The position numbers were made by a program, and so were the translations under genes. This document shows, in pieces, positions 3,900-24,135 of a DNA stretch of 61,122 nucleotides. The notes beneath the pieces were generated by a model. The model worked only from the letters and a program-made list of their open reading frames with translations, had not been told where the DNA came from and did not search any database. The DNA comes from Candidatus Nanopelagicales bacterium (GTDB lineage: Bacteria > Actinomycetota > Actinomycetes > S36-B12): contig JBMTDJ010000005.1 in assembly GCA_049431945.1 (NCBI GenBank), forward strand, positions 1-61,122, read 5' to 3'. Each line of letters begins with the position of its first letter. Position 1 is the first letter of the stretch.

Positions 3900-4561
3900 C
3901 GTCTCCACTGTCGCACGTAGTCAGGCAGTGGCACGTCGACGGCAAGGTCGTCGGCTACTGGCTCGCCGAACGACTCCTCGATCGGCACCCAGCCGGCCCA
4001 GATGCGCGAGTAGACCGGATCGACGAGGTCGGTGTCCACGTCCTCCGGAGGGCCGTCACCGACCTTGACCGAGATCTCGTCGAGCGGCAGGGCAAGGGTG
4101 ATGGTCGCCTTGAGCTCCTGCGGTGCGGGGTGGCGGGCATCCACGGTGCGGCCCGGCATGAGGCTCTCCGAGAGGTCCAGGAGCGCCTCGATCTCCTCGT
4201 CACCTTCGAGCCGCCGGCAGGTGCCGAGCGCCATGACGCAGCGGTAGTGCATGGACGACTCGAAGAGACTGCGTGCGAGCACGAGACCATCCAGCAGGGT
4301 GACGGTCAGGCAGGTGGGTGCACCATCTGCCAGGGTGCGGAACAGTCGCGAGGCGCTCGACCCGTGGAAGATCACCTCGTCGCCGCGGCGCGCGTAGCCG
4401 ACGGGGACGACGTACGGCTGACCGTCGGTGACAACGGCGACATGGGCCATGAGTCCCGCGTCGAGGATGGCGTAGGCGACCTCTCGCTCCGTCACGGACT
4501 TCTCGGGGATCCGCTTCACGCGCGTGCGCGCGGTGGAGCCGGGGTCGGGTAGTGATGTCAT
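3896..4561 (-). CDS. Pyridoxamine 5'-phosphate oxidase-like flavin-nucleotide-binding protein
   Basis: PYVVPVGY, FHGSSASRL, TLLDGLVLARS..SMHYR motifs of the split beta-barrel flavin-binding family; translationally coupled on both sides. Confidence 0.8.
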   Translation of the reverse strand: MTSLPDPGSTARTRVKRIPEKSVTEREVAYAILDAGLMAHVAVVTDGQPYVVPVGYARRGDEVIFHGSSASRLFRTLADGAPTCLTVTLLDGLVLARSLFESSMHYRCVMALGTCRRLEGDEEIEALLDLSESLMPGRTVDARHPAPQELKATITLALPLDEISVKVGDGPPEDVDTDLVDPVYSRIWAGWVPIEESFGEPVADDLAVDVPLPDYVRQWRR

Positions 4562-5961
4562 AGCCGGTTGCCCGCCTCGGTGAGGACCGCGCGCAGGATC
4601 TGCTCGATCTCGTCGAAGTGCGACTGATCGCAGATGAGTGGTGGAGAGAGCTGGATGACGGGATCCCCGCGATCATCCGCCCGGCAGTAGAGTCCGTTGT
4701 CGAACAGCGCCTTGTCGAGGTAGCCCCGCAGCAGGCGTTCGGACTCCTCGTCGCTGAAGGTCTCTCGGGTCTCCTTGTCCTTGACCAGTTCGATGCCATA
4801 GAAGAAGCCGGCACCTCGGACGTCGCCGACGATCGGCAGGTCGTAGAGCCGTTCCAGGGTGGTGCGGAAGGCAGCCTCGTTGTCGCGCACGTGCTCAAGT
4901 AGCCCCTCGCGTTCGAAGAGGTCGAGATTGGCGAGCGCCACCGCGCTGGCGACCGGATGGCCACCCCAGGTGTAACCGTGGAGGAATGTATTGGTCCCGT
5001 GGCGAAAGGGCTCGAAGAGTCGATCGCTGGCGATCATGGCGCCGGCTGCGGCGTACCCAGAGGTCATGCCCTTGGCGCAGGTGATGATGTCAGGCTGCAC
5101 GCCGAAGCGATTGATGGCGAAGATGTCGCCGATGCGACCAAACGCCGTGATGGTCTCGTCCGCGACGAAGAGCACGTCGTACTCGTCGCAGATCTCGCGC
5201 ACGCGCTCGAGGTAGCCGGACGGGGGAGGGAAGCAACCGCCGGAGTTCTGCACCGGTTCGAGGAAGACGGCGGCCACTGTCTCGGGTCCCTCGAATTCGA
5301 TCGCCTCACGGATGCGTTCCGCAGCCCACAAGCCGAATGCCTTCTCGTCGTAGCGGTACTCCTCGGGCGCCCGGTAGAAGTTTGTATTGGGCACCTTGAT
5401 GCCGGTGGGCACCAGCGGCTCGAAGTACTTCTTGGCACCGGTGAGGCCCGTGATCGACAGCGCACCATGGGGTGTGCCGTGGTAGGCGATATTGCGGCTG
5501 ATCACCTTGTGCTTCATCGGTTTGCCCGTGAGCTTGAAGTACTGCTTCGCGAGCTTCCAGGCGCTCTCGACGGCCTCGCCGCCGCCCGTGGTGAAGAAGA
5601 CTCGGTTCAGGTCCCCGGGTGCATAGTGCGCGAGGCGCTCCGCAAGTTCGATCGCGCGTGGGTGGGCGTAGGACCAGATGGGGAAGAAGCCGAGCTCCTC
5701 CGCCTGGCGAGCGGCCGCGGCCGCGAGTTCCTTGCGCCCGTGGCCCGCCTGCACGACGAAGAGGCCGGCCAGGCCATCGAGGTAGCGCCGGCCCTGGTCG
5801 TCCCAAACGTAGGCCCCCTCTCCGCGCACCATGACCGGCACGTGGCCCTCGCCTGATTCGTAGATCGAGTGCCGGGTGAAGTGCATCCACAGGTGGCGCT
5901 CGGCTGCCGCGGCAAGGCGGTCGTCGCCCGGCTCGGTGACGAACTGCGGAGTGATAGTCAT
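4558..5961 (-). CDS. Class III PLP-dependent aminotransferase (omega-amino/polyamine transaminase)
   Basis: YLDGLAGL, GGGEAVESA, YHG, EPVQNSGG, DETITAFGRIG, AKGMTSGY (PLP lysine), HGYTWGGHP. Confidence 0.9.
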   Translation of the reverse strand: MTITPQFVTEPGDDRLAAAAERHLWMHFTRHSIYESGEGHVPVMVRGEGAYVWDDQGRRYLDGLAGLFVVQAGHGRKELAAAAARQAEELGFFPIWSYAHPRAIELAERLAHYAPGDLNRVFFTTGGGEAVESAWKLAKQYFKLTGKPMKHKVISRNIAYHGTPHGALSITGLTGAKKYFEPLVPTGIKVPNTNFYRAPEEYRYDEKAFGLWAAERIREAIEFEGPETVAAVFLEPVQNSGGCFPPPSGYLERVREICDEYDVLFVADETITAFGRIGDIFAINRFGVQPDIITCAKGMTSGYAAAGAMIASDRLFEPFRHGTNTFLHGYTWGGHPVASAVALANLDLFEREGLLEHVRDNEAAFRTTLERLYDLPIVGDVRGAGFFYGIELVKDKETRETFSDEESERLLRGYLDKALFDNGLYCRADDRGDPVIQLSPPLICDQSHFDEIEQILRAVLTEAGNRL

Positions 5962-6446
5962 CGGGTGCCCCAGGTGTAGATCTGCTTGCGGAGTTGCAGA
6001 TAGACGAATGTCTCGGTGCGCTTGACGCCCGGTATCGGGCGGATACGGCGATTGAGGATCTCGAGCAGATGGTCGTCGTCTTCGGCGACGACTTCTGCCA
6101 TGAGGTCGAACCCGCCAGCGCAGATGACGAGGTAGTCGACCTCAGGCAGTGCTTCGACCTCGGAGGCGACGGCCTCGAGGTCACCCTCGACCGTGATTCC
6201 GATCATTGCCGCCCGTGGAAAGCCAACCTGCAAGGGATTCGTGACGGCGACCACCTGGATGACACCGGAATCGACCAAGCGCTGGACGCGGTGGCGCACC
6301 GCCGCCTCGGAGAGCCCCACCGCCTTGCCGATCGCCGCGTAAGGGCGTCGGCCGTCCTGCTGCAGTTGCTCGATGATCGCCTTGGCGACATCGTCGATCG
6401 GTGCGGCAGCTCGGTCGCCCTCTCGGGTCAATGTGAGTCGGGGCAT
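5958..6446 (-). CDS. Lrp/AsnC family transcriptional regulator
   Basis: IIEQLQQDGRRPYAAIGKAVGLSEAAVRHRVQRL HTH plus RAM domain (GGFDL). TAGGCT -10-like hexamer 6 nt before the ATG (probably leaderless). Confidence 0.92.
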   Translation of the reverse strand: MPRLTLTREGDRAAAPIDDVAKAIIEQLQQDGRRPYAAIGKAVGLSEAAVRHRVQRLVDSGVIQVVAVTNPLQVGFPRAAMIGITVEGDLEAVASEVEALPEVDYLVICAGGFDLMAEVVAEDDDHLLEILNRRIRPIPGVKRTETFVYLQLRKQIYTWGTR

Positions 6447-6483
6447 GGAGGCAGCCTAGGCAGTGAGGGGGTGTCCAATCAAG

Positions 6484-6526
6484 GGAATTCGTCGTGTGAG
6501 GTCGATATAAGTATCGGAATTCGTCG
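6484..6526. promoter_or_regulatory. Direct repeat GGAATTCGTCG x2 (32-bp period) in the divergent Lrp/dehydrogenase promoter; candidate Lrp operator
   Basis: Exact 11-mers at 6484-6494 and 6516-6526 in an AT-richer intergenic region. Confidence 0.5.
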
Positions 6527-6621
6527 CGCATGGAGGCCCGAGCATGCGGGATGGTGAGCCAGCGCTAGCGTGAGCCTGCCGACCGGCCAGGGTGGCCGGT
6601 CCTCGGACCAAAGGATGCGCT

Positions 6622-8067
6622 GTGAGCGACAAGCGGGTGCTGAACAACGTGATCGGCGGCGAGCGCGTGCCTTCGATGAGTGGCCAGACGCAGGATCTGG
6701 TCAATCCCTCGACCGGCGAGGTGTTCGCCTCGGCGCCCGTCTCGGGACCGGAGGACATCGACCGCGCGTACGCCGTGGCTGCTGATGCCTTCGCCGAATG
6801 GCGCGATTCGACCCCGGCTGAGCGTCAGAAAGCCCTCCTGGCGATCGCGGATCTCTTCGAGGAGCACGCCGACGAACTCGTCGCGCTGGAGAGCGAGAAC
6901 ACCGGCAAGCCCATCGCGGTGACCATGTCGGAGGAGATCCCCCCGATGGTCGATCAGATCCGCTTCTTCGCCGGTGCTGCGCGAGTGCTCGAGGGACGAG
7001 CCGCCGGTGAGTACATGAAGGGCTTCACGTCGATCATCCGTCGTGAGCCCGTGGGCGTCATCGGGCAGGTGACCCCGTGGAACTACCCGATGATGATGGC
7101 CGTCTGGAAGTACGCCCCGGCGATCGCCGCGGGCAACACCGTGGTTCTCAAGCCCTCAGACACGACTCCGGTTTCGACCGTGCGTATGGCGGAGCTCATC
7201 ACCGACGCGGGGATTCTGCCCCCCGGTGTCCTCAACGTGGTGACCGGTGATCGCGACACGGGTCGTGCGCTGGTGTCGCACCCCACGCCGCAGATGGTCG
7301 CGATCACCGGTTCCGTACGCGCGGGTATGGAGGTCGCGGGGGAGGCAGCCCGCGATGTGAAGCGCGTGCACCTGGAGCTCGGCGGCAAGGCCCCCATCGT
7401 GATCTTCGACGACGCCGACGTCGAGGCTGCCGCGGAGTGGCTGGCTGTCGCCGGCTACTTCAACGCCGGTCAGGACTGCACCGCCGCGACGCGCATGATC
7501 GTGGCTCCGGGAATCTACGACGATTTCGTCGCGGCAATCGGCCAACAGGCATCGGCTACGGCGACGACGTTCGACGACGGCCCGGGGGGCGAGGCGCTCG
7601 TGCCTCCGGTCAACAACGTCAATCAGCTCGAGCGCGTCCTCGGGTTCATCGAGCGGGCACCGTCGCATGCCCGCATCGTGGCCGGCGGCAAGCGCCAGGG
7701 TGATCGGGGCTTCTACATCGAGCCGACCGTCGTGGCCGACCTGCGGCAGGACGACGAGATGATCCAGAACGAGATGTTCGGCCCGGTCATCACCGTGCAG
7801 AAGTTTTCGGACGAGGCCGAGGCCCTCGCCTGGGCCAACGGCGTCAACTACGGCCTTGCCTCCTCCGTGTGGACCAAGGACTTCGGACGCGCCATGCGCA
7901 TGGCCAAGAACCTTGACTTCGGCTGTGTGTGGATCAACACCCACATCCCGCTCGTGGCCGAGATGCCTCACGGTGGCTTCAAGCACTCCGGCTACGGCAA
8001 GGATCTATCGATGTACGGGTTCGAGGACTACACCCGCATCAAGCACGTCATGGCCAGCCTGGACTAG
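6622..8067 (+). CDS. Gamma-aminobutyraldehyde dehydrogenase (aldehyde dehydrogenase family)
   Basis: [23 protein letters not shown] catalytic Cys, [20 protein letters not shown] 6622 follows AAGGA. Confidence 0.88.
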
Positions 8068-8092
8068 TCCAGCGCTTGACCCATGGCACGGC

Positions 8093-8114
8093 CCCCGGAC
8101 CATCAGGTCCGGGG
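8093..8114. terminator. GC-rich hairpin between convergent genes; putative bidirectional terminator
   Basis: CCCCGGACC-atca-GGTCCGGGG perfect 9-bp stem. Confidence 0.6.
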
Positions 8115-8137
8115 CCCTTCACTTGATGCCTGTGGTG

Positions 8138-9352
8138 CTAGTTGCCGCCCTCGTTAAGGGTGACGGTGATCGGTGCGAAGCCGTCGCCCGTCGTGTTGAG
8201 GCCCATGGCCGTCAACTCGGCGTTGGCTGCCTCGGCGAACTGGTTGGTGTAGGCATCCGCCGGCGGCTCAGCCGTGATGACGGTGAGGCCCTCGAGGTTC
8301 GGAGTATTGAGCGAGATTGCCACGGTCTGGGCCCATGCGGCCGGGTCCATGACGCCCACGCCGTTGGGGGAGGGCCAGATGAGCTTGTTGATCTCGTTCA
8401 TCATCCACAGCTGGTGGCTGGCACCGAGTTGCGAACCGTTGGCCGTCACGATGTCAGCGCACTCCTGTGCGTTGTCGCGGCAGTAGATCCAGCCCTGGAG
8501 CGACGCGGTAACAAAACGCTGCGTCAGATCCTGGTACGCCGCATCGGCGAGACGCTCCTGAGAAGCCCAGATCGCGTCCTGGAGCATGCCCACGCCGTAG
8601 TCGGTGTAGTTGATCACCGTGAAGTCCTCGGGCTTGTAGAGCTCGCCCGTATCCGGGTTGACGGCCTCGAGCAACTGCGCGTACTCGTTGTACGTCATGG
8701 CCTCGGCGGCGTCGATCTCACGATTAAGCAGGGCCAGCATGTCGAACTGCTGCTGGACGAGCTCGACGTCCTTGGCGGGGTCGAGGCCCTCCTTGGCGAG
8801 GGCAGCGAAGATCTCGTACTCGTTGCCGAAGCCCCAGTTGCCGATCTTCTTGCCCTTGAAGTCCGCAGGGGTCTTGATGCCGGAGTCGGCCCAGGCCACC
8901 TGCAGCGTGCCGGAGCGCTGGAAGACCTGCGCGACATCGACGATGCCTGCGCCCTGCTCACGCGAGCTCAGAGCCTTGGGCACCCACGAGATGGCGAAGT
9001 CGGAGCCGCCCTGCGCAAGCACGGTCTGCGGGACGATGTCGACACCACCTTCGAGGATGGTGACATCGAGGCACTGCTCCTCGTAGAAGCCCTTGTCCTT
9101 AGCCGCGTAATAGCCGGCGAACTGCGCCTGCACGAACCACTGGAGCTGCAGGCTCGCCGGCGTGAGCTCAGCGCAGGCCTCCGTAGACTCCTCGGGCGCT
9201 GGCGCGCTGGACTCCGCTGCCGAGGACTCGGCCGGGGCGGAGCTGGACTCGCCGGAAGTGCTGCCACCGCCGCAGGCCGCAAGTACGAACGCGGCAGCAG
9301 AGGCGACTCCGACAACGGCCGCCAAGCGGCCGCGCGGTGGGATCCGCTTCAT
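8138..9352 (-). CDS. ABC transporter substrate-binding lipoprotein (NMT1/THI5-like; pyrimidine uptake inferred)
   Basis: Start placed at ATG 9352 (MKRIPPRGRL...VLAACGG lipobox); LQLQWFVQAQFAGYYAAKDKGFYEE is typical of NMT1/THI5 binding proteins. Confidence 0.85.
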   Translation of the reverse strand: MKRIPPRGRLAAVVGVASAAAFVLAACGGGSTSGESSSAPAESSAAESSAPAPEESTEACAELTPASLQLQWFVQAQFAGYYAAKDKGFYEEQCLDVTILEGGVDIVPQTVLAQGGSDFAISWVPKALSSREQGAGIVDVAQVFQRSGTLQVAWADSGIKTPADFKGKKIGNWGFGNEYEIFAALAKEGLDPAKDVELVQQQFDMLALLNREIDAAEAMTYNEYAQLLEAVNPDTGELYKPEDFTVINYTDYGVGMLQDAIWASQERLADAAYQDLTQRFVTASLQGWIYCRDNAQECADIVTANGSQLGASHQLWMMNEINKLIWPSPNGVGVMDPAAWAQTVAISLNTPNLEGLTVITAEPPADAYTNQFAEAANAELTAMGLNTTGDGFAPITVTLNEGGN

Positions 9353-9372
9353 TGGTGTTCCTTTCTGGTGGG

Positions 9373-10143
9373 TTAGGCCGATCGGGAGCGATCGGCCCAT
9401 GGAGTGGTCCATCGCTCGAGAGCGACCGTGACCAGGTAGAAAACGAGACCGGTGATGATGGCGGCCACGACATAGGCCCATGCCCGGCCGTAGGCGGTGT
9501 TCGCGGCCGAACTGGCGATGCGGCTGCCGAGTCCTTCCTGGGGTCCGCCGAAGTACTCGGCGACGAGGGCCGCGATCACCGAGAGCGGTGCGGCGATCTT
9601 GAGCCCGGTGAAGAAGAACGGTATGGCGTTGGGCACGCGGAGCACTCGGAGGACCGTGCGCGGCTTCGCGTTCATCGAGCGCATCAACTCCAATTGCACC
9701 GGCTGGACCTGCACTAGGCCGCGAATGACATTCACGAGCATGGGGAAGAACACGATGATCATCGTTACCAGGACTCTCGGAGTCCTGCTGGTGATGCTGA
9801 ACATGTTGTTGAGGATCGGTGTCAGGGCAATGATGGGCACCGCGGCCAGGCCCGCGGCAAGCGGCGTAACCAGATTGTTAACGACGATGAAGCGCTGCGC
9901 GAGGAAGGCCATGGCGACGCCCAGGATGGATCCCAGCACCAGGCCCAGGAAGGCGGTCGTGGCCGTGTAGAGGGCCGTGTTCCACATGAGGGAGAGGTCG
10001 CCGAAGAAGTTTTCAGCGATCAGGCTCGGGGCCGGCAGCAGGTAGGGCTGGATGTCCTGGACGACGACGACCGCCTGCCACGCCGCAAGCACGAGCACGC
10101 CGATGAGGATCGGCGGCCAGATGAACTTCAGGCGGTCGGACAT
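9373..10143 (-). CDS. ABC transporter permease (SsuC/TauC type)
   Basis: Multi-TM; LPAPS, FFP, LRVPNAIPFFFTGLK, AEYFGG..GLG. Confidence 0.88.
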   Translation of the reverse strand: MSDRLKFIWPPILIGVLVLAAWQAVVVVQDIQPYLLPAPSLIAENFFGDLSLMWNTALYTATTAFLGLVLGSILGVAMAFLAQRFIVVNNLVTPLAAGLAAVPIIALTPILNNMFSITSRTPRVLVTMIIVFFPMLVNVIRGLVQVQPVQLELMRSMNAKPRTVLRVLRVPNAIPFFFTGLKIAAPLSVIAALVAEYFGGPQEGLGSRIASSAANTAYGRAWAYVVAAIITGLVFYLVTVALERWTTPWADRSRSA

Positions 10144-10997
10144 CAGACCTCGCCCACCCGAGCCCGGGTGCTGGCGCCGCCGACATGCCCCCGCAAGGCC
10201 TCGCGCACGGCCGTGACGGAGTGGAAGAAGTCCTCCGACTCGCGCGTGTCTTCATCGCGCGCGTCACCGAGAGGGATCGGGACGATGTCGGTGATGCGCC
10301 CAGGACGAGGGGACATCACGACGACCCGATCGGAGAGGTAGACCGCCTCGGGAATCGAGTGCGTGACGAAGATGATCGACTTGCCCGTCTCGCGGCGGAT
10401 CCGCAGCAGTTCGTTCTGCATCCGCTCGCGAGTCATCTCGTCGAGAGCGCCGAAGGGCTCGTCCATGAGCAGGAGCGGCGGGTCGACCGCGAGGGATCGG
10501 GCGATCGCCACCCGCTGCTGCATGCCACCGGACAGCTGCCAGGGCCGATGCTCGGCGAAGTCCGCGAGCTGAACCATGTCAAGGAGCTCCATGGAGCGCT
10601 GCTGCCGCTTGTCCTTGCCCCACCCCATGAGCTCCAGAGGCAACTCCACGTTCTTGCGGACGGTGCGCCAATCGAACAGGGCGGCCTGCTGGAAGGCCAT
10701 GCCGTACAGCTGCTTCTGGCGCGCCTCGTGAGGCGTCACGCCCGCCACGAGCATCTCGCCCCGCGTGGCATCGGTGAGGTCGGCGATCACCCTGAGGAGG
10801 GTCGACTTGCCGCAGCCCGAAGGACCGATCAGGGAGACGAACTCGCCCGAGTCGACGGAGAGGTTGACGTCCTGCAGTGCCGTCACTTCGCCGGACTGGC
10901 CCTCGTTGAAGACCTTCCAGATGCCCTGGGCCTGGACGGCGAGGGGGCCCGGCGGGTCGGCCAAGCCGCCCCTGTCGGGCTGTGTCGCATTGCTCAT
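10143..10997 (-). CDS. ABC transporter ATP-binding protein (SsuB/TauB type)
   Basis: GPSGCGKST, LSGGMQQR, LLMDEPFGALD, VTH. Confidence 0.93.
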   Translation of the reverse strand: MSNATQPDRGGLADPPGPLAVQAQGIWKVFNEGQSGEVTALQDVNLSVDSGEFVSLIGPSGCGKSTLLRVIADLTDATRGEMLVAGVTPHEARQKQLYGMAFQQAALFDWRTVRKNVELPLELMGWGKDKRQQRSMELLDMVQLADFAEHRPWQLSGGMQQRVAIARSLAVDPPLLLMDEPFGALDEMTRERMQNELLRIRRETGKSIIFVTHSIPEAVYLSDRVVVMSPRPGRITDIVPIPLGDARDEDTRESEDFFHSVTAVREALRGHVGGASTRARVGEV

Positions 10998-11899
10998 GCG
11001 CTCTTCTCCTTGGGCAGGTGGCGGGTGAGGTAGACGTCAAGCGCCGCGACAAGGGCGGCTACCAGGAGGCCCATGGCCAGGGCGCCGAATACCGCGACGT
11101 AGACCTTGGAGGGCTGCGAGGTGATCTGGCGGGCGTACTCGATGAGCAGGCGGCCGATGCCACCGCGCACTCCGGTGGAGATCTCCGCAACCACCGTTCC
11201 AACGACGGCGGCCGCGGCCGAGACCTTCAGCGCTGGCACGAGGTAGGGGATCGATGCGGGGAATCGCAGCTTGCGGGTCATCTGCCCAGGGGTGGCTCCG
11301 TAAGAACGCATGAGTTCCAGTGCGGTGGCGGAAGGGGCCTGCAGGCCGCGCAGGGCGCCTACGGATACGGGGAAGAACGCGAGATAGGCGGCGATGAACA
11401 TGACCGAGTACGTCGTGTTCCACTGGACGGGCCCGATCGAGATGCGGTTGCCGATGCCCACGATGAGCGGTGCGAGGGCGATCAGCGGGACGGTCTGCGA
11501 GGCGATGACGAAGGGGAGTAGCCCGCGCTCCATGAAGAGGAACCGCTGCATGATGACGGCGAGCAGCAGGCCCACCCCGGCGCCGATGACGAAACCGCCC
11601 GCGGCGAGCAGCAGGGAGCGGAACGTCGCGGACATGACCGCTTGCAGGACAGTAGTGTCCGAGCCGCGCACCTCAGGCTCGCCCATGGCCGACACCATCG
11701 TCCAGACGTGCGGCATCGTCATGTCCGATGTGTTGAGGGGCAGGCTCACCACGGTGCCCAGCCACTTCACGAGTTCCCACATGAGGACAGCGATGGCGAT
11801 CCCCGCGAGGGCCCACAGCAGGCTAACCGCGCCGTTGCGCAGCCGACGGCCTACGCCGCGCGAGCGGCGGGGCCGCTCGAGCGATGCCGTACTGCTCAC
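10994..11899 (-). CDS. ABC transporter permease (SsuC/TauC type)
   Basis: Multi-TM; SQTVPLIALAP, FFP, KLRFPASIP, VVAEI...GGIG. Confidence 0.88.
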   Translation of the reverse strand: MSSTASLERPRRSRGVGRRLRNGAVSLLWALAGIAIAVLMWELVKWLGTVVSLPLNTSDMTMPHVWTMVSAMGEPEVRGSDTTVLQAVMSATFRSLLLAAGGFVIGAGVGLLLAVIMQRFLFMERGLLPFVIASQTVPLIALAPLIVGIGNRISIGPVQWNTTYSVMFIAAYLAFFPVSVGALRGLQAPSATALELMRSYGATPGQMTRKLRFPASIPYLVPALKVSAAAAVVGTVVAEISTGVRGGIGRLLIEYARQITSQPSKVYVAVFGALAMGLLVAALVAALDVYLTRHLPKEKSA

Positions 11900-11928
11900 C
11901 GTGAACTCCTCCCTGCGCGAGCGAGCGG

Positions 11929-12945
11929 CTAGGACTTGGCCAGCACGGTCTCGGAGACGGCGGGAATGATCCTCTCGCCGTACTCCAAGAGTGTGTGGTC
12001 CTTGTCGTCGTGCTGGAGGTAGACGGCGAACTGGTCAACCCCCAGTGCCTTAAGCTCCTCGATCCTGCGAACGTGCTCCTCGACCGGGCCGATGATGCAG
12101 AAGCGGTCGATGATCTCGTCCGGCACGAAGTCGGTGTGGGTGTTGCCCGCGCGACCATGCTCGTTGTAGTCGTAGCCCTGCCGGTTCTTGATGTAGTCGG
12201 TCAAGGCCGACGGCACGCCGCCGCCCTCGCCGTATCGGTCGACAATGTCGGCGACATGATTGCCGACCATTCCGCCGAACCAGCGAAGCTGATCGCGAGC
12301 GTGCGGCACGTCGTCAGTGACGTAGGCCGGCGCTGCCACGCAGATGTAGACGTCGTCGGGATTACGACCGGCATCCGCAGCTGCCTTTCGGACTGCCTCG
12401 ATGGTCCAGGCGGCGATCTGTGGATCAGCCAACTGCAGGATGAATCCGTCGCCCACCTCACCGGTGAGCGCGAGGACCTTGGGGCCGTAGGCCGCGACGA
12501 AGACGCTCGTGTGGCTGTCCTCGGCCCATGGGAGACGAATGTTGCTGCCCTTGTACTCAATCGGCCGTCCGTTGGTGAGGTCCTTCAATTGCACGACGGC
12601 TTCGCGCAGTTCCGCAACGCTGACCGGCTTGCCGTTCGTGACGCGGACCGCGGAGTCACCGCGGCCGATCCCAATCACGGTGCGGTCGCCGTACATCTCG
12701 TTGAGGGTGGCGAAGACGGACGCGGTTACCGTGATGTCTCGGGTGGCCGGATTCGTCACCATCGGCCCGACGATGACCTTGCGGGTTTCGTCGAGGATCT
12801 TCGAGTAGATGACGTACGGCTCCTCCCACAGGATGTGGGAGTCGAAGGTCCACACGTAGTCGAAGCCCAGCGTCTCAGCACGCCGAGCGAGGTCGATGAC
12901 GCGTGATGCCGGGGGAGTGCACTGCAGGACGACGCCGATATCCAT
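11929..12945 (-). CDS. LLM-class putative F420-dependent oxidoreductase (resembles the TIGR03842 family)
   Basis: Start placed at ATG 12945: MDIGVVLQCTPPASRVIDLARRAETLGFDYVWTFDSHILWEEP, GPMVTNPATR, GIGRGDS, AAYGPK; luciferase-like TIM barrel. Confidence 0.8.
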   Translation of the reverse strand: MDIGVVLQCTPPASRVIDLARRAETLGFDYVWTFDSHILWEEPYVIYSKILDETRKVIVGPMVTNPATRDITVTASVFATLNEMYGDRTVIGIGRGDSAVRVTNGKPVSVAELREAVVQLKDLTNGRPIEYKGSNIRLPWAEDSHTSVFVAAYGPKVLALTGEVGDGFILQLADPQIAAWTIEAVRKAAADAGRNPDDVYICVAAPAYVTDDVPHARDQLRWFGGMVGNHVADIVDRYGEGGGVPSALTDYIKNRQGYDYNEHGRAGNTHTDFVPDEIIDRFCIIGPVEEHVRRIEELKALGVDQFAVYLQHDDKDHTLLEYGERIIPAVSETVLAKS

Positions 12946-12964
12946 GTCTGTGATCTGCCCTTCG

Positions 12965-14452
<1,488 letters not shown>

Positions 14453-14488
14453 GTGCTACTCCGCTCGTTTGCTGTGACGTGGAATCGG

Positions 14489-15901
14489 TCAGATGAGGTA
14501 CTGCGAGAGGCCGCGCTTGAGGTAGCGGCCGCGACCCTTGGTTCCGTGGAAGCCCTGATCGTCGACGAGGACCTCGCCGCGGGACATGACGACGTCGACG
14601 TGTCCGTCGATCTCGTAGCCCTCCCAGGCGCTGTGGTCCATGTTCATGTGATGGGTCTTGTCGTACCCGATGCTCGTGTGTCCATTCGGGTCATACACGA
14701 CGATGTCCGCATCCGACCCGGGGGCGATGGCGCCCTTCTTCGGGTAGAGCCCGAACATCCGAGCAGGCGTCGTGGATGTGATCTCCACCCATCGCTCGAC
14801 GCTGAGCTGCCCGTCGACGACCCCCTGGTAGATGAGGTCCATGCGGTGCTCGACTGACCCGATGCCATTGGGGATCTTGGAGAAGTCGCCGAGACCGAGC
14901 TCCTTTTGCTCCTTGAAGCAGAAGGGGCAGTGGTCGGTGCTCACGATCGACAGGTCGTTGGTGCGCAGATAGCGCCAGAGCTCGTCCTGGTGCCCCTCCT
15001 CACGAGAGCGGAGCGGGGTGGAGCAGACCCACTTGGCGCCCTCGAAACCCGGAGCACCGAGTTGCTCCTCGAGGGACAGGTAGAGGTACTGCGGGCAGGT
15101 CTCGCCGAAGACGTTGAGTCCGAGGTCGCGGGCCTCCTGCAACGTCTGCACCGCTTGCTTGGCGGACATGTGGACGATGTAGAGCGGGGCTCCGGTGATT
15201 CGCGCGAGCATGATCGCGCGATGTGTCGCCTCCTCCTCCGTCTCCCAGGGGCGTGTCAGCCCATGGTTGATCGGGGCCGTCTCACCTCGGGCGAGGGCCT
15301 GCGCGACGAGCACGTCGATCGCGATGCCGTTCTCGGCGTGCATCATGATCATCGACCCGTTGTTCTTGGCCTGCTGCATGGCGCGAAGGATCTGGCCGTC
15401 GTCGCTGTAGAAGACGCCCGGATAGGCCATGAAGAGCTTGAAGCTCGTCACGCCTTCGTCGACCAGTTCGTCCATCGCCTTGAGGGAGTCATCGTCGACG
15501 CCGCCGATGATCTGATGGAAGCCGTAGTCGATGAGGCAGTTGCCGTCGGCTTTGGCGTGCCACGCGGCGAGGCCGTCCTGTACGCGCTCGCCGTAGCGTT
15601 GCACGGCGAAGTCGATGATCGTCGTCGTGCCACCCCACGCGGCTGCGCGCGTGCCGGTCTCGAAGGTGTCGGATGCAAACGTGCCACCGAACGGCAATTC
15701 CATGTGAGTGTGGGCATCGATGCCGCCGGGGATGACGTACTTGCCCGTGGCGTCGATGACGCGATCGACCTTGCCGGCGAGTTCGTCCGACGCTGCGCCT
15801 GGAGCAAGCAGCGCTGAGATGGTCTCGCCGTCGACGAGCACATCTGTCACGGTCATGCCCTGCGGGGTGACGACCGATCCGCCTTGAATGAGGGTGCGCA
15901 T
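14489..15901 (-). CDS. hydA: Dihydropyrimidinase (D-hydantoinase)
   Basis: Start placed at ATG 15901 (MRTLIQGG); PGGIDAHTH, GGTTTIIDF, SFKLFMAY, HAENG, STDHCPF, KIPNG. Confidence 0.93.
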   Translation of the reverse strand: MRTLIQGGSVVTPQGMTVTDVLVDGETISALLAPGAASDELAGKVDRVIDATGKYVIPGGIDAHTHMELPFGGTFASDTFETGTRAAAWGGTTTIIDFAVQRYGERVQDGLAAWHAKADGNCLIDYGFHQIIGGVDDDSLKAMDELVDEGVTSFKLFMAYPGVFYSDDGQILRAMQQAKNNGSMIMMHAENGIAIDVLVAQALARGETAPINHGLTRPWETEEEATHRAIMLARITGAPLYIVHMSAKQAVQTLQEARDLGLNVFGETCPQYLYLSLEEQLGAPGFEGAKWVCSTPLRSREEGHQDELWRYLRTNDLSIVSTDHCPFCFKEQKELGLGDFSKIPNGIGSVEHRMDLIYQGVVDGQLSVERWVEITSTTPARMFGLYPKKGAIAPGSDADIVVYDPNGHTSIGYDKTHHMNMDHSAWEGYEIDGHVDVVMSRGEVLVDDQGFHGTKGRGRYLKRGLSQYLI

Positions 15902-15924
15902 GTCAGCCTCCTGTGTGTCGGGAA

Positions 15925-16764
15925 TCAGGCGCGAGTGAGGTCGCCGTAGGCGTCCGGTCGACGATCGCGATAGAACGCCCACCGGTTGCGCACCTCTGCG
16001 AGCAGGTCCATGTCGAGGTCGCGGACGACAAGTTCGGGCTTGTAGGGGTCGGCAGGCTCGCCCACGAACTTGCCCTCGGGATCGACGAAGTAGCTGGTCC
16101 CGTAGAAGTCGTTGTCGCCGATCTCGGACTCGATGCCCACGCGGTTGATTGCGCCGACGAAGTACTCGTTGGCGACGGCCGAGGCGGGTTGCTCCAACTG
16201 CCAGAGGTACGCAGAGAGGCCACGGTGCGTGGCCGACGGATTGAAGACGATCTGGGCGCCGTTGAGACCCAGTGCGCGCCAGCCCTCGGGGAAGTGCCGG
16301 TCGTAGCAGATGTAGACGCCGACGGGGCCGACAGCTGTCTGGAAGACGGGGTAGCCGAGGTTGCCGGGACGGAAGTAGAACTTCTCCCAGAAGCCCTTGA
16401 CCTGCGGGATGTGGTTCTTGCGGTACTTGCCGAGGTAGGTGCCATCGGCATCGACGACCGCGGCGGTGTTGTAGAGGATGCCGGGCTGCTCCTCCTCGTA
16501 CATCGGGAGCACGAGCACCATGCCGAGCTCGGCCGCGAGGGCCTGGAAGCGCTCCGTGGTGGGTCCGGGAATGGACTCCGCGTACTCGTAGTACTTCGCA
16601 TCCTGCACCTGGCAGAAGTACGGGCCATAGAAAAGCTCCTGGAAGCACATGACCTTCGCGCCCTGCGCGGCCGCCTGCCGCGCGTACTCCTCGTGGGCGA
16701 CGATCATGGACTCCTTGTCGCCCGTCCAGTTGGTCTGGACAAGGGCTGCCCGCACGACGGACAT
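15925..16764 (-). CDS. Nitrilase-superfamily carbon-nitrogen hydrolase, probable beta-ureidopropionase
   Basis: E-K-C triad (QELF, YRKNHIP, ICYDRHFPE), FWEKFYFRPGN; adjacent to dihydropyrimidinase. Confidence 0.85.
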   Translation of the reverse strand: MSVVRAALVQTNWTGDKESMIVAHEEYARQAAAQGAKVMCFQELFYGPYFCQVQDAKYYEYAESIPGPTTERFQALAAELGMVLVLPMYEEEQPGILYNTAAVVDADGTYLGKYRKNHIPQVKGFWEKFYFRPGNLGYPVFQTAVGPVGVYICYDRHFPEGWRALGLNGAQIVFNPSATHRGLSAYLWQLEQPASAVANEYFVGAINRVGIESEIGDNDFYGTSYFVDPEGKFVGEPADPYKPELVVRDLDMDLLAEVRNRWAFYRDRRPDAYGDLTRA

Positions 16765-17038
16765 GGCACCTCCACGTGGCTCTCGGCGAAGGCCGAGGAC
16801 CCGGACTTCCCGGGACGGATCCTCACACTAGACCCGTACGTGGCGCCCGGTGAGGAGACCGGGCGAATCGCCCGTTCTGTCGTCCATGACCGCTCTGCCG
16901 CCGCGGATGTCGGAGTCCGCCAGCAGGCGTAGCGGTGACATCTGAGTCCCACCGGGTCGCCCCACGGGTACGGCGGGGGCCGCTAGTGTGGAGCGATCGC
17001 CCGAGCGACGAGGCGCGGGCCGCACTCGGGAGGTGATC

Positions 17039-18541
17039 GTGGTCGCGGGATTCATCGACGGGGCCCCCGTAGCCGCCGGCTCGGCCGGCACCTTTGATGT
17101 CATCGATCCTTCCGATGGCACCGTGGTGCAGACCGTGGGTCTCGCGGGTCCTACGGAGGTCGATAGCGCCGTCGCCGCAGCCAAGCGTGCTCAGCCCGAG
17201 TGGGCAGCGGCGACGCCGGCGGAGCGCGGGGCGGCACTGCTCGCGCTCGCGCAGCGCGTCGAGGCCAGGGCGGCGGAGTACGCCGAGGTCGAGTCCCGCC
17301 AGACCGGCAAGACGATCCGGCTGGCGACGGAGTTCGACGTCCCGGGCAGTATCGACAATGCCGTGTTCTTCGCCGGGGCCGCGCGTCAGCTCGAGGGGCT
17401 GGCGTCGGGGGAGTACGACGCGACGCACACCTCGGTGATCCGACGCGAGCCCGTGGGTGTGGTCGGCTCGATCGCCCCCTGGAACTACCCCCTGCAGATG
17501 GCCATGTGGAAGGTCCTCCCCGCGATTGCCGCAGGCAACACGATCGTGCTTAAGCCGGCGGAGATCACCCCGCTCACCACCCTCATGCTGGCCGAGGATG
17601 CGGCAGCCGCCGGAATCCCCGCGGGCGTCCTCAACGTCGTTGTCGGCCGTGGCCCCGAGGCTGGGGAGGCGCTCGTAAGCCATCCGGATGTCGCGATGGT
17701 GTCCTTCACCGGCTCGACGCCCGTAGGGCGGCGCGTCATGGAGCTCGCCGCGGGGCGGGCAGCCCGGGTCCATCTCGAGCTTGGGGGCAAGGCACCTTTC
17801 GTCGTGTACGACGACGCCGACATCGATGCGGCGATCCAGGGCGCGGTCGCTGGTGCCCTCATCAACGCGGGTCAGGACTGCACGGCTGCCACACGCATCT
17901 ACGCTCAGCGCGGGGTCTACGACGAGATCGTCGCGGGCGTGGCCGATCTGCTCGGCCGGGTCAGGGTCGGGGATCCGCGCGATCCCGCGACGGACCTCGG
18001 GCCCCTCGTCTCCTTCGCGCAGCGTGATCGCGTCGCGGGGTTCGTCGATCGGGCTCGCGGTGTTGGCGCCGAGGTCCGGGCCGGTGGCGTGATCCCCGGC
18101 GGCGACCTGGCCAAAGGTGCCTACTACGCCCCGACCCTGGTCACTGGGGCGGCCCAGGACGCCGAAATCGTCCAGGAGGAGATCTTCGGGCCGGTACTCG
18201 TCGCGCTGCCCTTCGACTCCGACGTTGAGGGCATCGACCTGGCCAATGACACCCGTTACGGCCTCGCGGCCTCGGTGTGGTCTCGGGATGTCTTCCGCAC
18301 GATGGGGGCACAACGGGCAATTCGGGCAGGGACCGTCTGGGTCAACGATCACATCCCCATCGTGAGCGAGATGCCCCATGGAGGGATGAAGCAATCCGGC
18401 TTCGGGAAGGACATGTCGAAGTACTCCCTCGAGGAATACACGGTGGTCAAGCATGTCTCGTGGGATATCTCAGGGGAGCCGCGCAAGGAGTGGCATCGCA
18501 CGATCTTCACCGATACCGGTCCGGCCCCGGCGGGGCGGTGA
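17039..18541 (+). CDS. Second gamma-aminobutyraldehyde/aminoaldehyde dehydrogenase
   Basis: [38 protein letters not shown]. Start placed at GTG 17039 after GGAGG. Confidence 0.85.
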   Translation: MVAGFIDGAPVAAGSAGTFDVIDPSDGTVVQTVGLAGPTEVDSAVAAAKRAQPEWAAATPAERGAALLALAQRVEARAAEYAEVESRQTGKTIRLATEFDVPGSIDNAVFFAGAARQLEGLASGEYDATHTSVIRREPVGVVGSIAPWNYPLQMAMWKVLPAIAAGNTIVLKPAEITPLTTLMLAEDAAAAGIPAGVLNVVVGRGPEAGEALVSHPDVAMVSFTGSTPVGRRVMELAAGRAARVHLELGGKAPFVVYDDADIDAAIQGAVAGALINAGQDCTAATRIYAQRGVYDEIVAGVADLLGRVRVGDPRDPATDLGPLVSFAQRDRVAGFVDRARGVGAEVRAGGVIPGGDLAKGAYYAPTLVTGAAQDAEIVQEEIFGPVLVALPFDSDVEGIDLANDTRYGLAASVWSRDVFRTMGAQRAIRAGTVWVNDHIPIVSEMPHGGMKQSGFGKDMSKYSLEEYTVVKHVSWDISGEPRKEWHRTIFTDTGPAPAGR

Positions 18542-18620
18542 GGCACCCCTTCCGGGGTTCCGCGTTAGCATCAGTCAGGAGCCAGGCGAGCGACCGCTCG
18601 ACGAACACGAGGAGTATGAG

Positions 18621-19847
18621 ATGACGAAGCGCCCCTTGTCCCCGCAGGCTGCCGCGATTGTGGCCATGTCCCGGTCCAGCCTGTCGCGCCGCCGGCTCCT
18701 TCAGGTGGCGGGCATCACGGGCGTGGCTGCTACGGCCGCCGCATGCGGTGCCGGGGGTGGTTCGAGCGACGAGAGCAGCGCCGCTCCCTCCCCGACGCAG
18801 GCATCGGATCTGTCCGACTCCGAGAAGTTCGTCAATTGGGCCAACTGGCCGCTCTACATCGACGTCAACGACGAGACCGGCGCGTACCCCACGCTCGAGG
18901 CGTTCACGGCCACGACGGGCATCGACGTCAACTACACCGAGGACGTCAACGACAACAACGAGTTCTACGCCAAGGTGCGCGCCCAGCTCGAGGCTGGCCA
19001 GTCGATCGATCGCGACATCGTCGTCCTGACTGACTGGATGGCAGCGCTGTGGATCAACAATGGCTTCGCAGCCAAGTTCGACAAGGCCCTGATTCCCAAC
19101 GCCGCCAACCTCGAGCCGGCGTACAACGGCGTCGCCTTCGACCCCAACCGCGACTACACCCTGCCGTGGTTCTCCGGCTTCGGGGCGTTCGGCTGGAACA
19201 AGGCGGCGCTCCAGGAGACCCTGGGCACCGGCAGCCTGACGTCACTCGATCAGCTCTGGGACCCGGCGCTCAAGGGCCGCATCACCGTCCTGTCCGAGAT
19301 GCGCGACACGATGGGCATCATCATGGCGTGGCAGGGCGCTGACCCCTCCAACTTCACCGATGACCAGTACCAGGCGGGCATCGCCGAGCTGCAGAAGCAG
19401 ATCGACAGCGGGCAGATCCGCCAGGTGGCGGGTAACGACTACGTCGCCGCGCTCGAGACCGGCGACGTCATCGCCGTCATCGGCTGGTCCGGCGACATGT
19501 TCCAGCTCGGCGATGACTACGGCGTGGGCCTGCCCGAGAGCGGCGGCATGCTGTGGACGGACAACATGCTCATCCCGTCCGTTGCGACCCACAAGAAGAA
19601 TGCCGAGGCGGTCATGAACTACTACTACGACCCCGCCGTCGCCGCCGAGGTCGCCGCCTACGTCCAGTACATCTCCCCAGTTGCGGGCGCCAAGGAGGCC
19701 ATGGCCGACATCGATCCCACCCTGGTCGACAACCAGTGGATCTTCCCGGATCAGGCCACCCTCGATAACTCCTACGTCTTCATGACCTTGACGCCGGAGC
19801 AGGACGAGGCCTACCAGCGCGAGTTCCAGAAGGCCATCGGTCTGTAG
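18621..19847 (+). CDS. Spermidine/putrescine ABC transporter substrate-binding protein (PotD/PotF-like)
   Basis: ATG 18621; SRRRLL twin-arginine-like signal and AAAC lipobox; NWPLYID, WSGD, WTDNM. Confidence 0.88.
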   Translation: MTKRPLSPQAAAIVAMSRSSLSRRRLLQVAGITGVAATAAACGAGGGSSDESSAAPSPTQASDLSDSEKFVNWANWPLYIDVNDETGAYPTLEAFTATTGIDVNYTEDVNDNNEFYAKVRAQLEAGQSIDRDIVVLTDWMAALWINNGFAAKFDKALIPNAANLEPAYNGVAFDPNRDYTLPWFSGFGAFGWNKAALQETLGTGSLTSLDQLWDPALKGRITVLSEMRDTMGIIMAWQGADPSNFTDDQYQAGIAELQKQIDSGQIRQVAGNDYVAALETGDVIAVIGWSGDMFQLGDDYGVGLPESGGMLWTDNMLIPSVATHKKNAEAVMNYYYDPAVAAEVAAYVQYISPVAGAKEAMADIDPTLVDNQWIFPDQATLDNSYVFMTLTPEQDEAYQREFQKAIGL

Positions 19848-19888
19848 TCCGAGAGGCGTAGGCTGCCGGGTCGCAGGAGAGGAGAGCC

Positions 19889-20989
19889 GTGGCGGCCAAT
19901 GATGGAGTTCAGGATCTGCACCTGGTCAACCTGGTCAAGTCCTTCGGTGACTTCGTTGCCGTCGACGATCTGACCCTGACTATTCCCGCGGGGTCGTTCT
20001 TCGCCCTCTTGGGGCCGTCAGGGTGCGGCAAGACCACGACCCTCCGCATGGTGGCCGGACTCGAGGATCCGACGAGCGGGCAGATCATGCTCGGCTCGAC
20101 GGACATCACGAATGAGAAGCCGTACAAGAGGCATGTCAATACGGTCTTCCAGTCGTATGCGCTCTTCCCGCACCTGGACATCTTCGAGAACGTCGCGTTC
20201 GGTCTGCGCCGCCGCGGCATCAAGGATGTGACGGGTCCGGTCAATGCCATGCTGGATCTCGTCGAGCTCGGGCCGATGGCACGGCGCAAGCCAGCACAGC
20301 TGTCCGGTGGTCAGCAGCAGCGCGTGGCGGTCGCTCGCGCGCTGATCAACCAGCCGGGTGTGCTCCTGCTGGACGAGCCTCTCGGCGCCCTCGACCTCAA
20401 GTTGCGTCGACAGATGCAGATCGAGCTCAAGCGCATTCAGACCGAGGTGGGGACGACATTCGTCCATGTCACCCATGACCAGGAAGAGGCCATGACGATG
20501 GCCGACACGGTCGCGGTCATGAACAAGGGGCGCATTGAGCAGATGGGTGCCCCGGTCGACATCTATGAGCTGCCGCGCACCGCGTTCGTGGCCAACTTCC
20601 TGGGCCAGTCCAACACCGTGGCCGGCACCGTGTCCGGTAGGTCGGGCAGCGATTTGGTCGTCAACGCCTATGGCGCGTCGTTTACGGTTCCGTCCGCCCG
20701 GTCGACGCGGCAGGACGGCGCCATCCTCGTCGGGGTCCGACCCGAGAAGTTGTCGGTCGCCTCAGCTGGGGGCGCTGTTCCGGATCGCAGCAACAGGGTC
20801 ACCGGCAAGGTGACCGACGCCTCTTTCACGGGCGTGTCCACTCAGTACCTCGTCATGACCAGCTGGGGCGATGAGTGGACGGTGTTCGAGCAGAATAGGT
20901 CCGCGGACATCCTGCGCCCGGGCGACGAGGTGGTCATGCACTGGGCGCCTGAGCACACCTTCGGCCTCGACGTCCCGTCGGAGTCCTGA
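19889..20989 (+). CDS. potA: Polyamine ABC transporter ATP-binding protein (PotA-like)
   Basis: GPSGCGKTT, VFQSYALFPH, LSGGQQQR, LLLDEPLGALDLKLR, C-terminal TOBE-like region. Confidence 0.88.
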   Translation: MAANDGVQDLHLVNLVKSFGDFVAVDDLTLTIPAGSFFALLGPSGCGKTTTLRMVAGLEDPTSGQIMLGSTDITNEKPYKRHVNTVFQSYALFPHLDIFENVAFGLRRRGIKDVTGPVNAMLDLVELGPMARRKPAQLSGGQQQRVAVARALINQPGVLLLDEPLGALDLKLRRQMQIELKRIQTEVGTTFVHVTHDQEEAMTMADTVAVMNKGRIEQMGAPVDIYELPRTAFVANFLGQSNTVAGTVSGRSGSDLVVNAYGASFTVPSARSTRQDGAILVGVRPEKLSVASAGGAVPDRSNRVTGKVTDASFTGVSTQYLVMTSWGDEWTVFEQNRSADILRPGDEVVMHWAPEHTFGLDVPSES

Positions 20990-20990
20990 C

Positions 20991-22699: not shown

Positions 22700-22705
22700 T
22701 CACCC

Positions 22706-24118: not shown

Positions 24119-24135
24119 CCCCCTAGGGTGGGCTC

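Follow-up and report, generated by a model that had tools for sequence, protein, structure and literature searches.

Reductive catabolism of uracil and thymine is encoded in Pyd clusters, for which the pathway scheme in the available portion of PMC7332683 serves as our reference; neither F420 nor luciferase occurs in that paper (0 occurrences). The first step is assigned to PydA or PreT-PreA (EC 1.3.1.1, 1.3.1.2; PydAc is ferredoxin-dependent), an FMN/Fe-S enzyme of the dihydroorotate dehydrogenase fold. For Mycobacterium smegmatis, the accessible part of PMC4617892 describes the first enzyme of the reductive pathway as not fully identified. In the mureidomycin and napsamycin clusters, SSGG-03002 and NpsU are described, from gene disruption and NMR, as putative F420/FMN oxidoreductases that reduce the uracil C5=C6 bond (PMC10714638, seen in part); these enzymes serve antibiotic tailoring, not catabolism, are reported without in vitro activity, and resemble the protein analyzed here in the described reaction. 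A parallel replacement has been proposed for the reductive uric-acid pathway, where a luciferase-family protein would act as an F420-dependent yanthine reductase in place of an Fe-S flavoenzyme (PMC12507026, from the part available); that proposal concerns purines, and the luciferase-like proteins found here in such clusters are 24-26% identical to ours and fall outside its family, TIGR03842.

The window analyzed here, the whole 61,122-nt stretch of DNA, comes from a coastal actinobacterium and contains, at 8138-16764, an operon of eight open reading frames, all on the minus strand (Table 1). Clusters of this kind share with Pyd clusters PydB, PydC, MmsA, an aminotransferase, an importer and a RutR-like regulator; instead of the Fe-S enzyme, however, there is a single 338-aa luciferase-like hydride transferase (LLM), together with F420 supply genes. 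We consider it very probable, judging from sequence comparison and a predicted structure, that this TIGR03842 protein is an F420H2-dependent uracil/thymine reductase, that is, a non-homologous replacement of PreTA/PydA in a reductive pyrimidine-degradation operon. Such an unrelated-fold substitute for the known PreTA step is likely a new function as far as the literature was searched: the papers covered, which are part of the relevant ones, contain no mention of this role for the enzyme.

Table 1. Features of the predicted pyrimidine-degradation operon and its 3' flank (window positions)
Feature	Position	Strand	Evidence
N-carbamoyl amidohydrolase of the nitrilase family (279 aa), likely PydC (beta-ureidopropionase)	15925..16764	-	PF00795
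Dihydropyrimidinase (PydB/HydA), 470 aa	14489..15901	-	TIGR02033 546 bits, cut-off 393
CoA-acylating (methyl)malonate-semialdehyde dehydrogenase MmsA, 495 aa	12965..14452	-	TIGR01722 718 bits, cut-off 448.5
TIGR03842 luciferase-like hydride transferase (LLM), 338 aa; proposed F420H2-dependent uracil/thymine reductase	11929..12945	-	TIGR03842 572 bits; fold; profile; synteny
ABC permease 1 (NitT/TauT type)	10994..11899	-	PF00528
ABC ATPase (TauB/NtrCD type)	10143..10997	-	PF00005; best NCBIfam TauB, under cut-off
ABC permease 2	9373..10143	-	PF00528
NMT1/THI5-like substrate-binding protein, likely pyrimidine-binding, 404 aa	8138..9352	-	PF09084, E 1e-38
G+C-rich hairpin 3' of the last operon gene, between converging genes; possible terminator	8090..8117	-	fold z -3.5

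Profile searches detected neither PreA nor PreT, whether in the window itself or elsewhere in its assembly (162 contigs, 94.3% complete). The best score against the PreA model NF006183 was 115, with a cut-off of 335, and the gene in question is PyrD (NF005574, 330 against 269); the sole Fer4_20 match is the small subunit of glutamate synthase (TIGR01317, 677 against 448). A PreA disguised as PyrD or GltD was rejected on these scores. The same genome encodes CofD, CofE, FbiC and CofC, all above their cut-offs, as well as Fno (233 bits, cut-off 150) and PntAB, and holds only two LLM-family proteins. Barbiturase (PF09663) had no match in it, nor in the control genomes, so that this negative carries no weight. 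A preliminary description of this DNA had reported the eight co-oriented genes and the lack of a PreTA-like protein in the window; both observations hold, and the absence extends to the assembly. It had also named two genome-level findings that could overturn its F420-based reading, missing F420 biosynthesis genes and a PreTA elsewhere in the genome, and the searches of the 94.3% complete assembly gave the opposite result on each count.

The LLM, for which the same description had suggested a family check, is a member of TIGR03842 (F420_CPS_4043) with 572.3 bits against a cut-off of 295.45 over model positions 1-329 of 329; its sole Pfam match is PF00296, and it lacks the PydA/PreTA domain set (dihydroorotate dehydrogenase-fold FMN plus Fe-S, NF006183). 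The family model names no substrate, so the function proposed here would be new to the family as far as searched. In the predicted structure (pLDDT 91.5), the 15 best structural neighbors are all F420 enzymes, and Foldseek ranks 1-8 are Mer, the F420H2-dependent methylene-H4MPT reductase (EC 1.5.98.2; PDB 1Z69, 8QPL). The fold thus likely makes the LLM an F420-dependent luciferase-like hydride transferase. RutA, the FMN- and O2-dependent enzyme of oxidative uracil degradation, also combines a luciferase-like fold with uracil as its substrate, and 42 of 80 loci of a proteobacterial LLM clade have a RutR-like regulator in their vicinity, so we considered a RutA-like monooxygenase that opens the uracil ring oxidatively. 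The match to RutA is, however, only at rank 35 (Z 24.9, 18% identity, compared with Z 36 for Mer); RutA has no place among the phmmer matches of the LLM in the PDB, the NCBIfam matches listed include no RutA model, and the LLM is tightly linked to F420 genes. Oxidative ring opening, moreover, bypasses the substrate of dihydropyrimidinase, so that an O2-dependent reaction would deprive the adjacent gene product of its substrate. Taken with the predicted fold, these points make a RutA-like activity extremely improbable.

Mer is both the closest solved sequence (E 5e-31) and the closest fold (Z 36.1, rmsd 2.7, 313 residues aligned), although identity is only 24-26% and the LLM fails the Mer cut-offs (TIGR03555, 130 against 349 bits; NF002619, 147 against 276). 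The LLM keeps Mer Val62, Asp96 and the position-178 carboxamide as Val63, Asp97 and Gln171, whereas the catalytic Glu6 is replaced by Val6, and by Val, Thr or Cys in homologs (the other clade has Thr or Cys). Val63 is invariant in 177 of 177 homologs; its Mer counterpart is a site relevant to the non-prolyl cis-peptide under the deazaflavin ring, an equivalence drawn from alignment. Mer position 178 is Gln in the paper and, by our count, Asn in the PDB chain. The motifs DSH.LW, WF..MV.NH and YDY..HG are specific to the LLM family.

Leisingera-like homologs, 41% identical to the window LLM, form the end of a cofGHDCE-fno run inside pyd clusters, in five loci as hydA-cofGHDCE-fno-LLM-pydC on one strand; canonical pyd clusters have preT-preA in the place of cofGHDCE-fno-LLM. 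In 75 of 80 related loci, dihydropyrimidinase and the LLM are neighbors, which indicates that the gene order is conserved and not due to chance. Neither preT nor preA was found in the 80 proteobacterial-clade loci, and the 52 plasmid records with hydA comprise 39 with preA, 10 with the LLM, none with both and 3 with neither, although these counts are not independent because the 80 metagenome loci include many near copies and the 10 LLM plasmids represent two Leisingera species. This exclusion was scored on loci and plasmids; in the whole-replicon check, which covered Leisingera and Paracoccus, no preA was found on replicons that carry the LLM. Across loci, the LLM and hydA are constant, whereas the third enzyme is either a nitrilase or an M20 hydrolase and the transporter is of either the ABC or the NCS1 type. 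Against the reductase reading, 13 of 28 long proteobacterial-clade loci lack hydA and pydC within the available stretch, and in 3 of the 28 (L123, L126, L171), as in the Paracoccus locus L089, no gene for pyrimidine degradation lies nearby.

A phylogenetic profile, proposed in the preliminary description, points in the same direction. Among 351 Actinomycetota genomes, 75 encode a TIGR03842 LLM; hydA is present in 74 of these and in 33 of the 276 others, cofD in 73 of the 75, and in 63 of 74 the LLM and hydA are no more than 10 kb apart. Of the cofD-positive genomes, 91 have hydA, and 72 of these carry the LLM, as against 1 of the 121 that lack hydA. PreA scored above the cut-off in a single genome of the 351, an LLM-negative one; given its near absence with or without the LLM, mutual exclusion is visible only in proteobacteria. 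Of the 33 genomes with hydA and no LLM, 19 loci were fetched: 13 carry purine-catabolism families, which indicates another pathway, 3 are lone genes, and 3 are distant or at a contig edge. Some LLM matches have long open frames upstream of them; in the two loci checked (L211, L212), these are not hydA fusions. Two further observations count against the reductase reading: one 96% complete genome (G238) has the LLM operon and lacks cofD, cofE and cofH, and three genomes without LLM or PreA keep a hydA 54-64% identical to that of the window. Comparative genomics nonetheless favors the LLM in place of PreTA, as the preliminary description had suggested.

Another possibility is that dihydropyrimidines or hydantoins are what the operon degrades and that the LLM has a side job, the oxidation of dihydrouracil to uracil for salvage or the reduction of malonic semialdehyde. 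F420 enzymes can catalyze their reactions in either direction (PMC8498797, in the part available), and lone hydA genes and hydantoinase-carbamoylase clusters exist without any first-step enzyme; no value for the redox potential of uracil was found in the paper searched. The predicted structure, however, is nearer to reductases (Mer, Z 34-36) than to F420 dehydrogenases (Z 29-34), sources of F420H2 (Fno, Fgd-type enzymes or transhydrogenase) travel with the LLM, and the semialdehyde step is already covered by MmsA here and by a YdfG-like reductase in four loci without MmsA. Such a side job, which would leave the either-or pattern with preA unexplained, is very unlikely.

Dependence on F420 is further suggested by a large actinobacterial family (f8), in which 68 of 131 sampled genomes carry the LLM. 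All 68 carriers encode CofE, and the LLM is found in 68 of 73 CofE-positive and 0 of 58 CofE-negative genomes; where both are on the same contig, they are at most 25 kb apart in 48 of 53 pairs. In 14 of the 68 carriers, cofD is absent and no FO synthase is found. We dropped these genomes as evidence against F420: all 14 keep CofE, and in 9 a gene for a putative F420-0 importer adjoins the operon.

In the proposed pathway, whose substrate and direction are suggested by gene association, the ABC system would import pyrimidines, Fno would reduce F420 to F420H2 with NADPH, and the LLM would use F420H2 to deliver a hydride to C6 of uracil or thymine, with C5 protonated by a family-specific residue (candidates, His37, His230 and His263). 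Dihydropyrimidinase would open the ring of the 5,6-dihydro base, the nitrilase would yield beta-alanine or beta-aminoisobutyrate with release of NH3 and CO2, an aminotransferase whose gene lies outside the operon (G000:C61) would produce the semialdehyde, and MmsA would convert this to acetyl- or propionyl-CoA. The genome thus appears to hold a set for beta-alanine disposal, MmsA in the operon and the putative aminotransferase on contig C61, which is 62-65% identical to operon-linked enzymes of three relatives and whose substrate is suggested by that likeness.

The closest solved structures to the dihydropyrimidinase are D-hydantoinase and dihydropyrimidinase (E 1e-141 to 1e-138). The nitrilase is about equally near to N-carbamoylputrescine amidase (190 bits) and beta-ureidopropionases (181 and 175), reaches no NCBIfam cut-off (AguB, 241 against 410), and shares 56% identity with the nitrilase from a Thalassospira cluster on a replicon that carries preA; its active-site motifs RKNHIP, CY.RH.P and FNPSAT follow the ureidopropionase pattern, not that of the putrescine enzyme, and operon context likely favors PydC. 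The slightly better score to the putrescine enzyme and the polyamine genes that adjoin the operon on its flanks are points against the main reading. The importer bears on whether the LLM might be an F420H2-dependent reductase of the same pathway with another substrate, either a different pyrimidine or a nucleoside (uridine, thymidine, a 5-substituted or damaged base). The binding protein belongs to the THI5/NMT1 family, Tsx nucleoside channels lie inside two LLM operons (L165, L169), and the mureidomycin enzyme left free uracil unreduced in vitro under the conditions tried (PMC10714638, in the part seen). The binding protein is, however, 40% identical (E 2e-70) to that of a preTA-pydC-hydA operon (L174) and matches solved ThiY and THI5 far more weakly (E 4e-11 and 1e-4). 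The downstream enzymes, RutR-like regulator and importer family are all common to preTA operons, the annotated loci show no nucleoside-specific or tailoring enzyme as a recurrent neighbor of the LLM, and our search found no alternative first-step enzyme, so that a substrate other than free uracil or thymine seems very unlikely.

More broadly, we think it probable that TIGR03842 is an undescribed dihydropyrimidine dehydrogenase that needs F420H2 and no iron, and that reductive pyrimidine catabolism in Actinomycetota normally starts with it. On this reading, it would also be the chief reason for the uptake of complete F420 cassettes by marine proteobacteria and for the completion or import, in family f8, of F420 that its members cannot make. 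If so, about one-fifth of the sampled Actinomycetota genomes (75 of 351) would have a named enzyme for the missing first step of uracil and thymine breakdown, the orphan family TIGR03842 would gain a substrate, and F420H2 would become the third electron donor for this step, after NAD(P)H and ferredoxin, acting through an unrelated fold. This would also account for the retention or import of F420 by many bacteria and would give a testable answer to why Proteobacteria make it, listed as an open question in the accessible part of an F420 review (PMC8498797). A single-chain, metal-free ring reductase could be of use in biocatalysis and might act on 5-fluorouracil.

Within the operon, intergenic gaps are 19-36 bases, or genes overlap by 1-4 bases, and most starts are preceded by purine-rich sequences resembling ribosome-binding sites. 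A consensus scan listed no promoter or terminator at the operon; the hairpin beyond its last gene has no U-run and was therefore missed by the terminator consensus, although region 8070-8140 folds at -37.5 kcal/mol (z -3.5, equaled by 0 of 200 shuffles). Contigs from four RNA-library runs span much of the operon; in two libraries, they reach 22 kb, for which reason DNA is suspected there, and the other contigs are short pieces.

The system is genuine and conserved, and very probably represents a variant of the reductive pyrimidine pathway in which the first enzyme is F420H2-dependent and non-homologous to PreTA, the usual Fe-S flavoenzyme; the cofactor of the LLM protein is better supported than its substrate. 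ORF and gap checks of the window bear out eight genuine, closely packed, co-oriented genes, with true starts at 15901, 12945 and 9352, around which the mechanical ORFs run longer. In HMM searches, the LLM belongs to TIGR03842 (572 vs cut-off 295), the dihydropyrimidinase to TIGR02033 (546 vs 393), and MmsA to TIGR01722 (718 vs 448.5). The transporter genes encode a pair of permeases (PF00528), one ABC-type ATPase and a binding protein (PF09084) that is 40% identical to its counterpart in a preTA operon. The nitrilase (PF00795) had been called ureidopropionase-like; the motifs RKNHIP, CY.RH.P and FNPSAT, shared with ureidopropionases, support this label, but the best scores are ambiguous (190 bits for N-carbamoylputrescine amidase, 181 and 175 for beta-ureidopropionases). 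Four loci of close relatives (L014, L016, L024, L058) retain nitrilase/hydA-mmsA-LLM and lack the four ABC genes 3' of the LLM, so that the importer is a separable module.

Coordinates of the operon, its flanks and the loci compared with it
Feature	Location	Coordinates	Strand
Pyrimidine operon	window	8138-16764	-
LLM gene	window	11929-12945	-
Polyamine-use genes	window	2529-8067	
Polyamine-use genes	window	16988-26369	
Purine-cluster LLM	L181	900-1847	
Purine-cluster LLM	L190	13469-14497	
Purine-cluster LLM	L191	11621-12646	
cofGHDCE-npdG-LLM, then ABC system, Paracoccus alcaliphilus plasmid	L089	8587-17794	

Contig C5, the window, belongs to an assembly of 2.30 Mb in 162 contigs (94.3% complete, 67% G+C). 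The LLM had been proposed to use F420H2 in place of PreTA, and the rest of the genome agrees: cofD, cofE and fbiC reside on C93 and cofC on C33, and no PreTA was found when this 94.3% complete assembly was searched for PreA and PreT. The best-scoring PreA candidate is PyrD and the PreT-like match is GltD; both were rejected. An Fno gene is present on C48 and PntAB on C79; given that the own-genome search detected neither Fgd nor an F420-0 importer, Fno is the likely source of F420H2. The assembly encodes only two LLM proteins, that of the operon and a TIGR03559 protein, and hence no RutA. This 2.3-Mb genome retains the entire F420 pathway (C93, C33, C48, C13) alongside only two members of the LLM family, the one family counted. 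The nearest relatives of the LLM, Candidatus Nanopelagicales among them, are 90-93% identical, and 80-97% of the operon's sampled words are present in 14 marine, estuary or lagoon runs from 9 studies, one possibly the source.

The structure model of the LLM (pLDDT 91.5) is nearest to Mer, the F420H2-dependent methylene-H4MPT reductase, by sequence, Foldseek and VIA-align (Z 36.1, rmsd 2.7, 313 aligned). VIA-align ranks 1-15 are all F420 enzymes; Z is 27 for luciferase and 24.9 for RutA. Compared with the residues named in a Mer mutagenesis paper (PMC11094777), the LLM conserves Val62, Asp96 and a carboxamide at position 178 but not the catalytic Glu6. At least 97% conservation in both TIGR03842 clades (97 and 80 sequences) is seen at 54 positions, including Asp35, Ser36, His37, Trp40, Asp97, Gln171, Asn229, His230 and His263; the same active site on both sides of a split at 41% identity fits a single substrate. 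PMC8498797 gives -340 mV as the standard potential of F420, which serves to reduce alkenes, enamines and enoates. By analogy with enoate-type reduction, hydride would be transferred to C6 and a proton to C5 of the pyrimidine.

The strongest evidence in the analysis that the LLM cofactor would be F420 comes from gene co-occurrence in family f8, where LLM, cofD and CofE are found in 68, 59 and 73 of the 131 genomes, respectively. CofE is present in all 68 LLM carriers, the LLM in 0 of the 58 CofE-negative genomes, and 48 of the 53 LLM-CofE pairs on one contig lie within 25 kb. In 14 carriers, cofD and FO synthase were not found; 9 of these 14 cofD-negative loci encode a homolog of the binding protein from a putative F420-0 importer (representatives scored by TIGR03868, permease by TIGR03869, homologs then counted), and 5 encode Fgd or an Fgd-family enzyme. 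An exception is G238 (family f20; 96% complete, about 20 contigs), which has the operon, a complete hydA-aminotransferase-M20-NCS1-LLM cluster (L234, contig C9), but in which cofD, cofE and cofH were not found. Among the f8 genomes checked for salvage (loci L220-L239), CofE was present in 16/16 and FO synthase above cut-off in 0/16, and the pyrimidine operon forms clusters with Fgd-type genes and with genes for a putative F420-0 importer (TIGR03868, TIGR03869). Genome G406 has cofD, cofC and the importer, with FO synthase not found, a combination that points to uptake of FO or F420-0.

Among the best 80 of 594 related actinobacterial stretches, hydA occurs in 75, a nitrilase in 61, an M20 hydrolase in 8, and preA or preT in none; all 33 stretches with 8 kb on both sides contain hydA plus a third enzyme (nitrilase or M20 hydrolase), and PreA is missing from each of the 50 source genomes, out of 80, that were searched. 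An even sample of 351 Actinomycetota genomes, each at least 90% complete, includes five unpublished ones (the LLM carrier G138, and G170, G098, G051 and G366). With the best 4-6 candidates scored per genome, and kin not being independent, TIGR03842 exceeds its cut-off in 75, hydA is found in 107 (E 1e-100) and cofD in 212 (E 1e-50). LLM carriers have hydA in 74/75 cases (the exception being a 600-contig assembly) vs 33/276 non-carriers, and cofD in 73/75 vs 139/276; among cofD-positive genomes, the LLM is present in 72/91 with hydA vs 1/121 without. The two genes are at most 10 kb apart in 63 of 74 genomes, farther in 5 and on separate contigs in 6, and carrier loci of several clades and gene orders include hydA in 20/20. 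The phylogenetic profile thus upholds the link of LLM to hydA but not mutual exclusion with PreA, which is so rare in the phylum (matched in 2 of the 351 genomes, above cut-off in 1, both LLM-negative) that the LLM tracks a pathway hole.

From the 33 hydA-positive, LLM-negative genomes, 19 loci were retrieved. Purine-catabolism families are present at 13 (xanthine dehydrogenase FAD subunit, 8-oxoguanine deaminase, carbamoyltransferase, diaminopropionate ammonia-lyase, YgeY, adenine deaminase); of the other loci, 3 have hydA on its own and 3 are distant or cut. The lone genes (L185, L186, L187; 54-64% identical to the window's) have unrelated neighbors, and their genomes lack LLM and PreA. Actinobacterial purine-catabolism clusters L181, L190 and L191 carry a separate clade of Mer-like LLMs, 24-26% identical to the window's and under every NCBIfam cut-off. 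This clade fits the putative F420-dependent yanthine reductase proposed for Chloroflexota in PMC12507026.

The LLM is also found on eleven proteobacterial plasmid records (41-43% identity). In Leisingera, NCS1-hydA-Zn hydrolase-aminotransferase-pntBA is divergent from cofG-H-D-C-E-npdG-LLM with a RutR-like gene, and PreA was not found on the replicon. Around the Paracoccus alcaliphilus cassette, no hydA occurs within 14 kb, and the ABC binding protein is 24-27% identical to pyd binding proteins. The best 80 of 238 metagenome stretches, which carry no stated taxonomy, are 67-100% identical to the Leisingera protein, and the 12 of these LLMs that were included in the tree group as a single clade. 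These 80 loci include fno (56), cofE (54), cofD (47), a RutR-like gene (42), M20 hydrolase (34), hydA (26), NCS1 (23), aminotransferase (20), MmsA (18), nitrilase (11) and transhydrogenase (9), with no preA or preT. Of these, 28 extend at least 8 kb to either side; a pyrimidine-linked gene is present at 25 of the 28 and absent at 3, and hydA or pydC occurs at 15. Five loci (L131, L162, L165, L169, L170) show hydA-cofGHDCE-fno-LLM-pydC on a single strand, interrupted by a Tsx channel in both of two such loci checked. Canonical pyd clusters carry preT-preA at the position occupied by cof-fno-LLM in Leisingera-like loci. Among 52 hydA plasmid records (plasmids only), preA is present in 39, the LLM in 10 (two Leisingera species), both in 0 and neither in 3, two of which are hydantoinase-carbamoylase clusters.

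Full-text search, with most subscription journals outside its scope, returned no paper assigning TIGR03842 LLMs a pyrimidine reductase role and no matches for "TIGR03842" or "CPS_4043"; the accessible portions of PMC10714638, PMC4617892, PMC3897704, PMC12516864 and PMC6279831 likewise assign none, so that the role is provisionally undescribed. In the available text, PMC8498797 does not mention uracil, thymine or hydantoin and lists the reason why Proteobacteria make F420 as open, and F420 is absent from the portions of PMC7332683 and PMC4016543 covered. Excerpts of PMC13718301 report binding of GlnR and MtrA to the msmeg_3553 promoter, and those of PMC11578590 label MSMEG_3554 as Mer.

Polyamine-use genes flank the operon on either side, a linkage that persists in close relatives: two aminobutyraldehyde dehydrogenases, a PotABCD-like importer, a class III aminotransferase with an Lrp regulator, two FAD oxidoreductases, an agmatinase-like gene and a carboxynorspermidine-synthase-like gene. 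Disposal of beta-alanine through MmsA may be common to the polyamine and pyrimidine routes.
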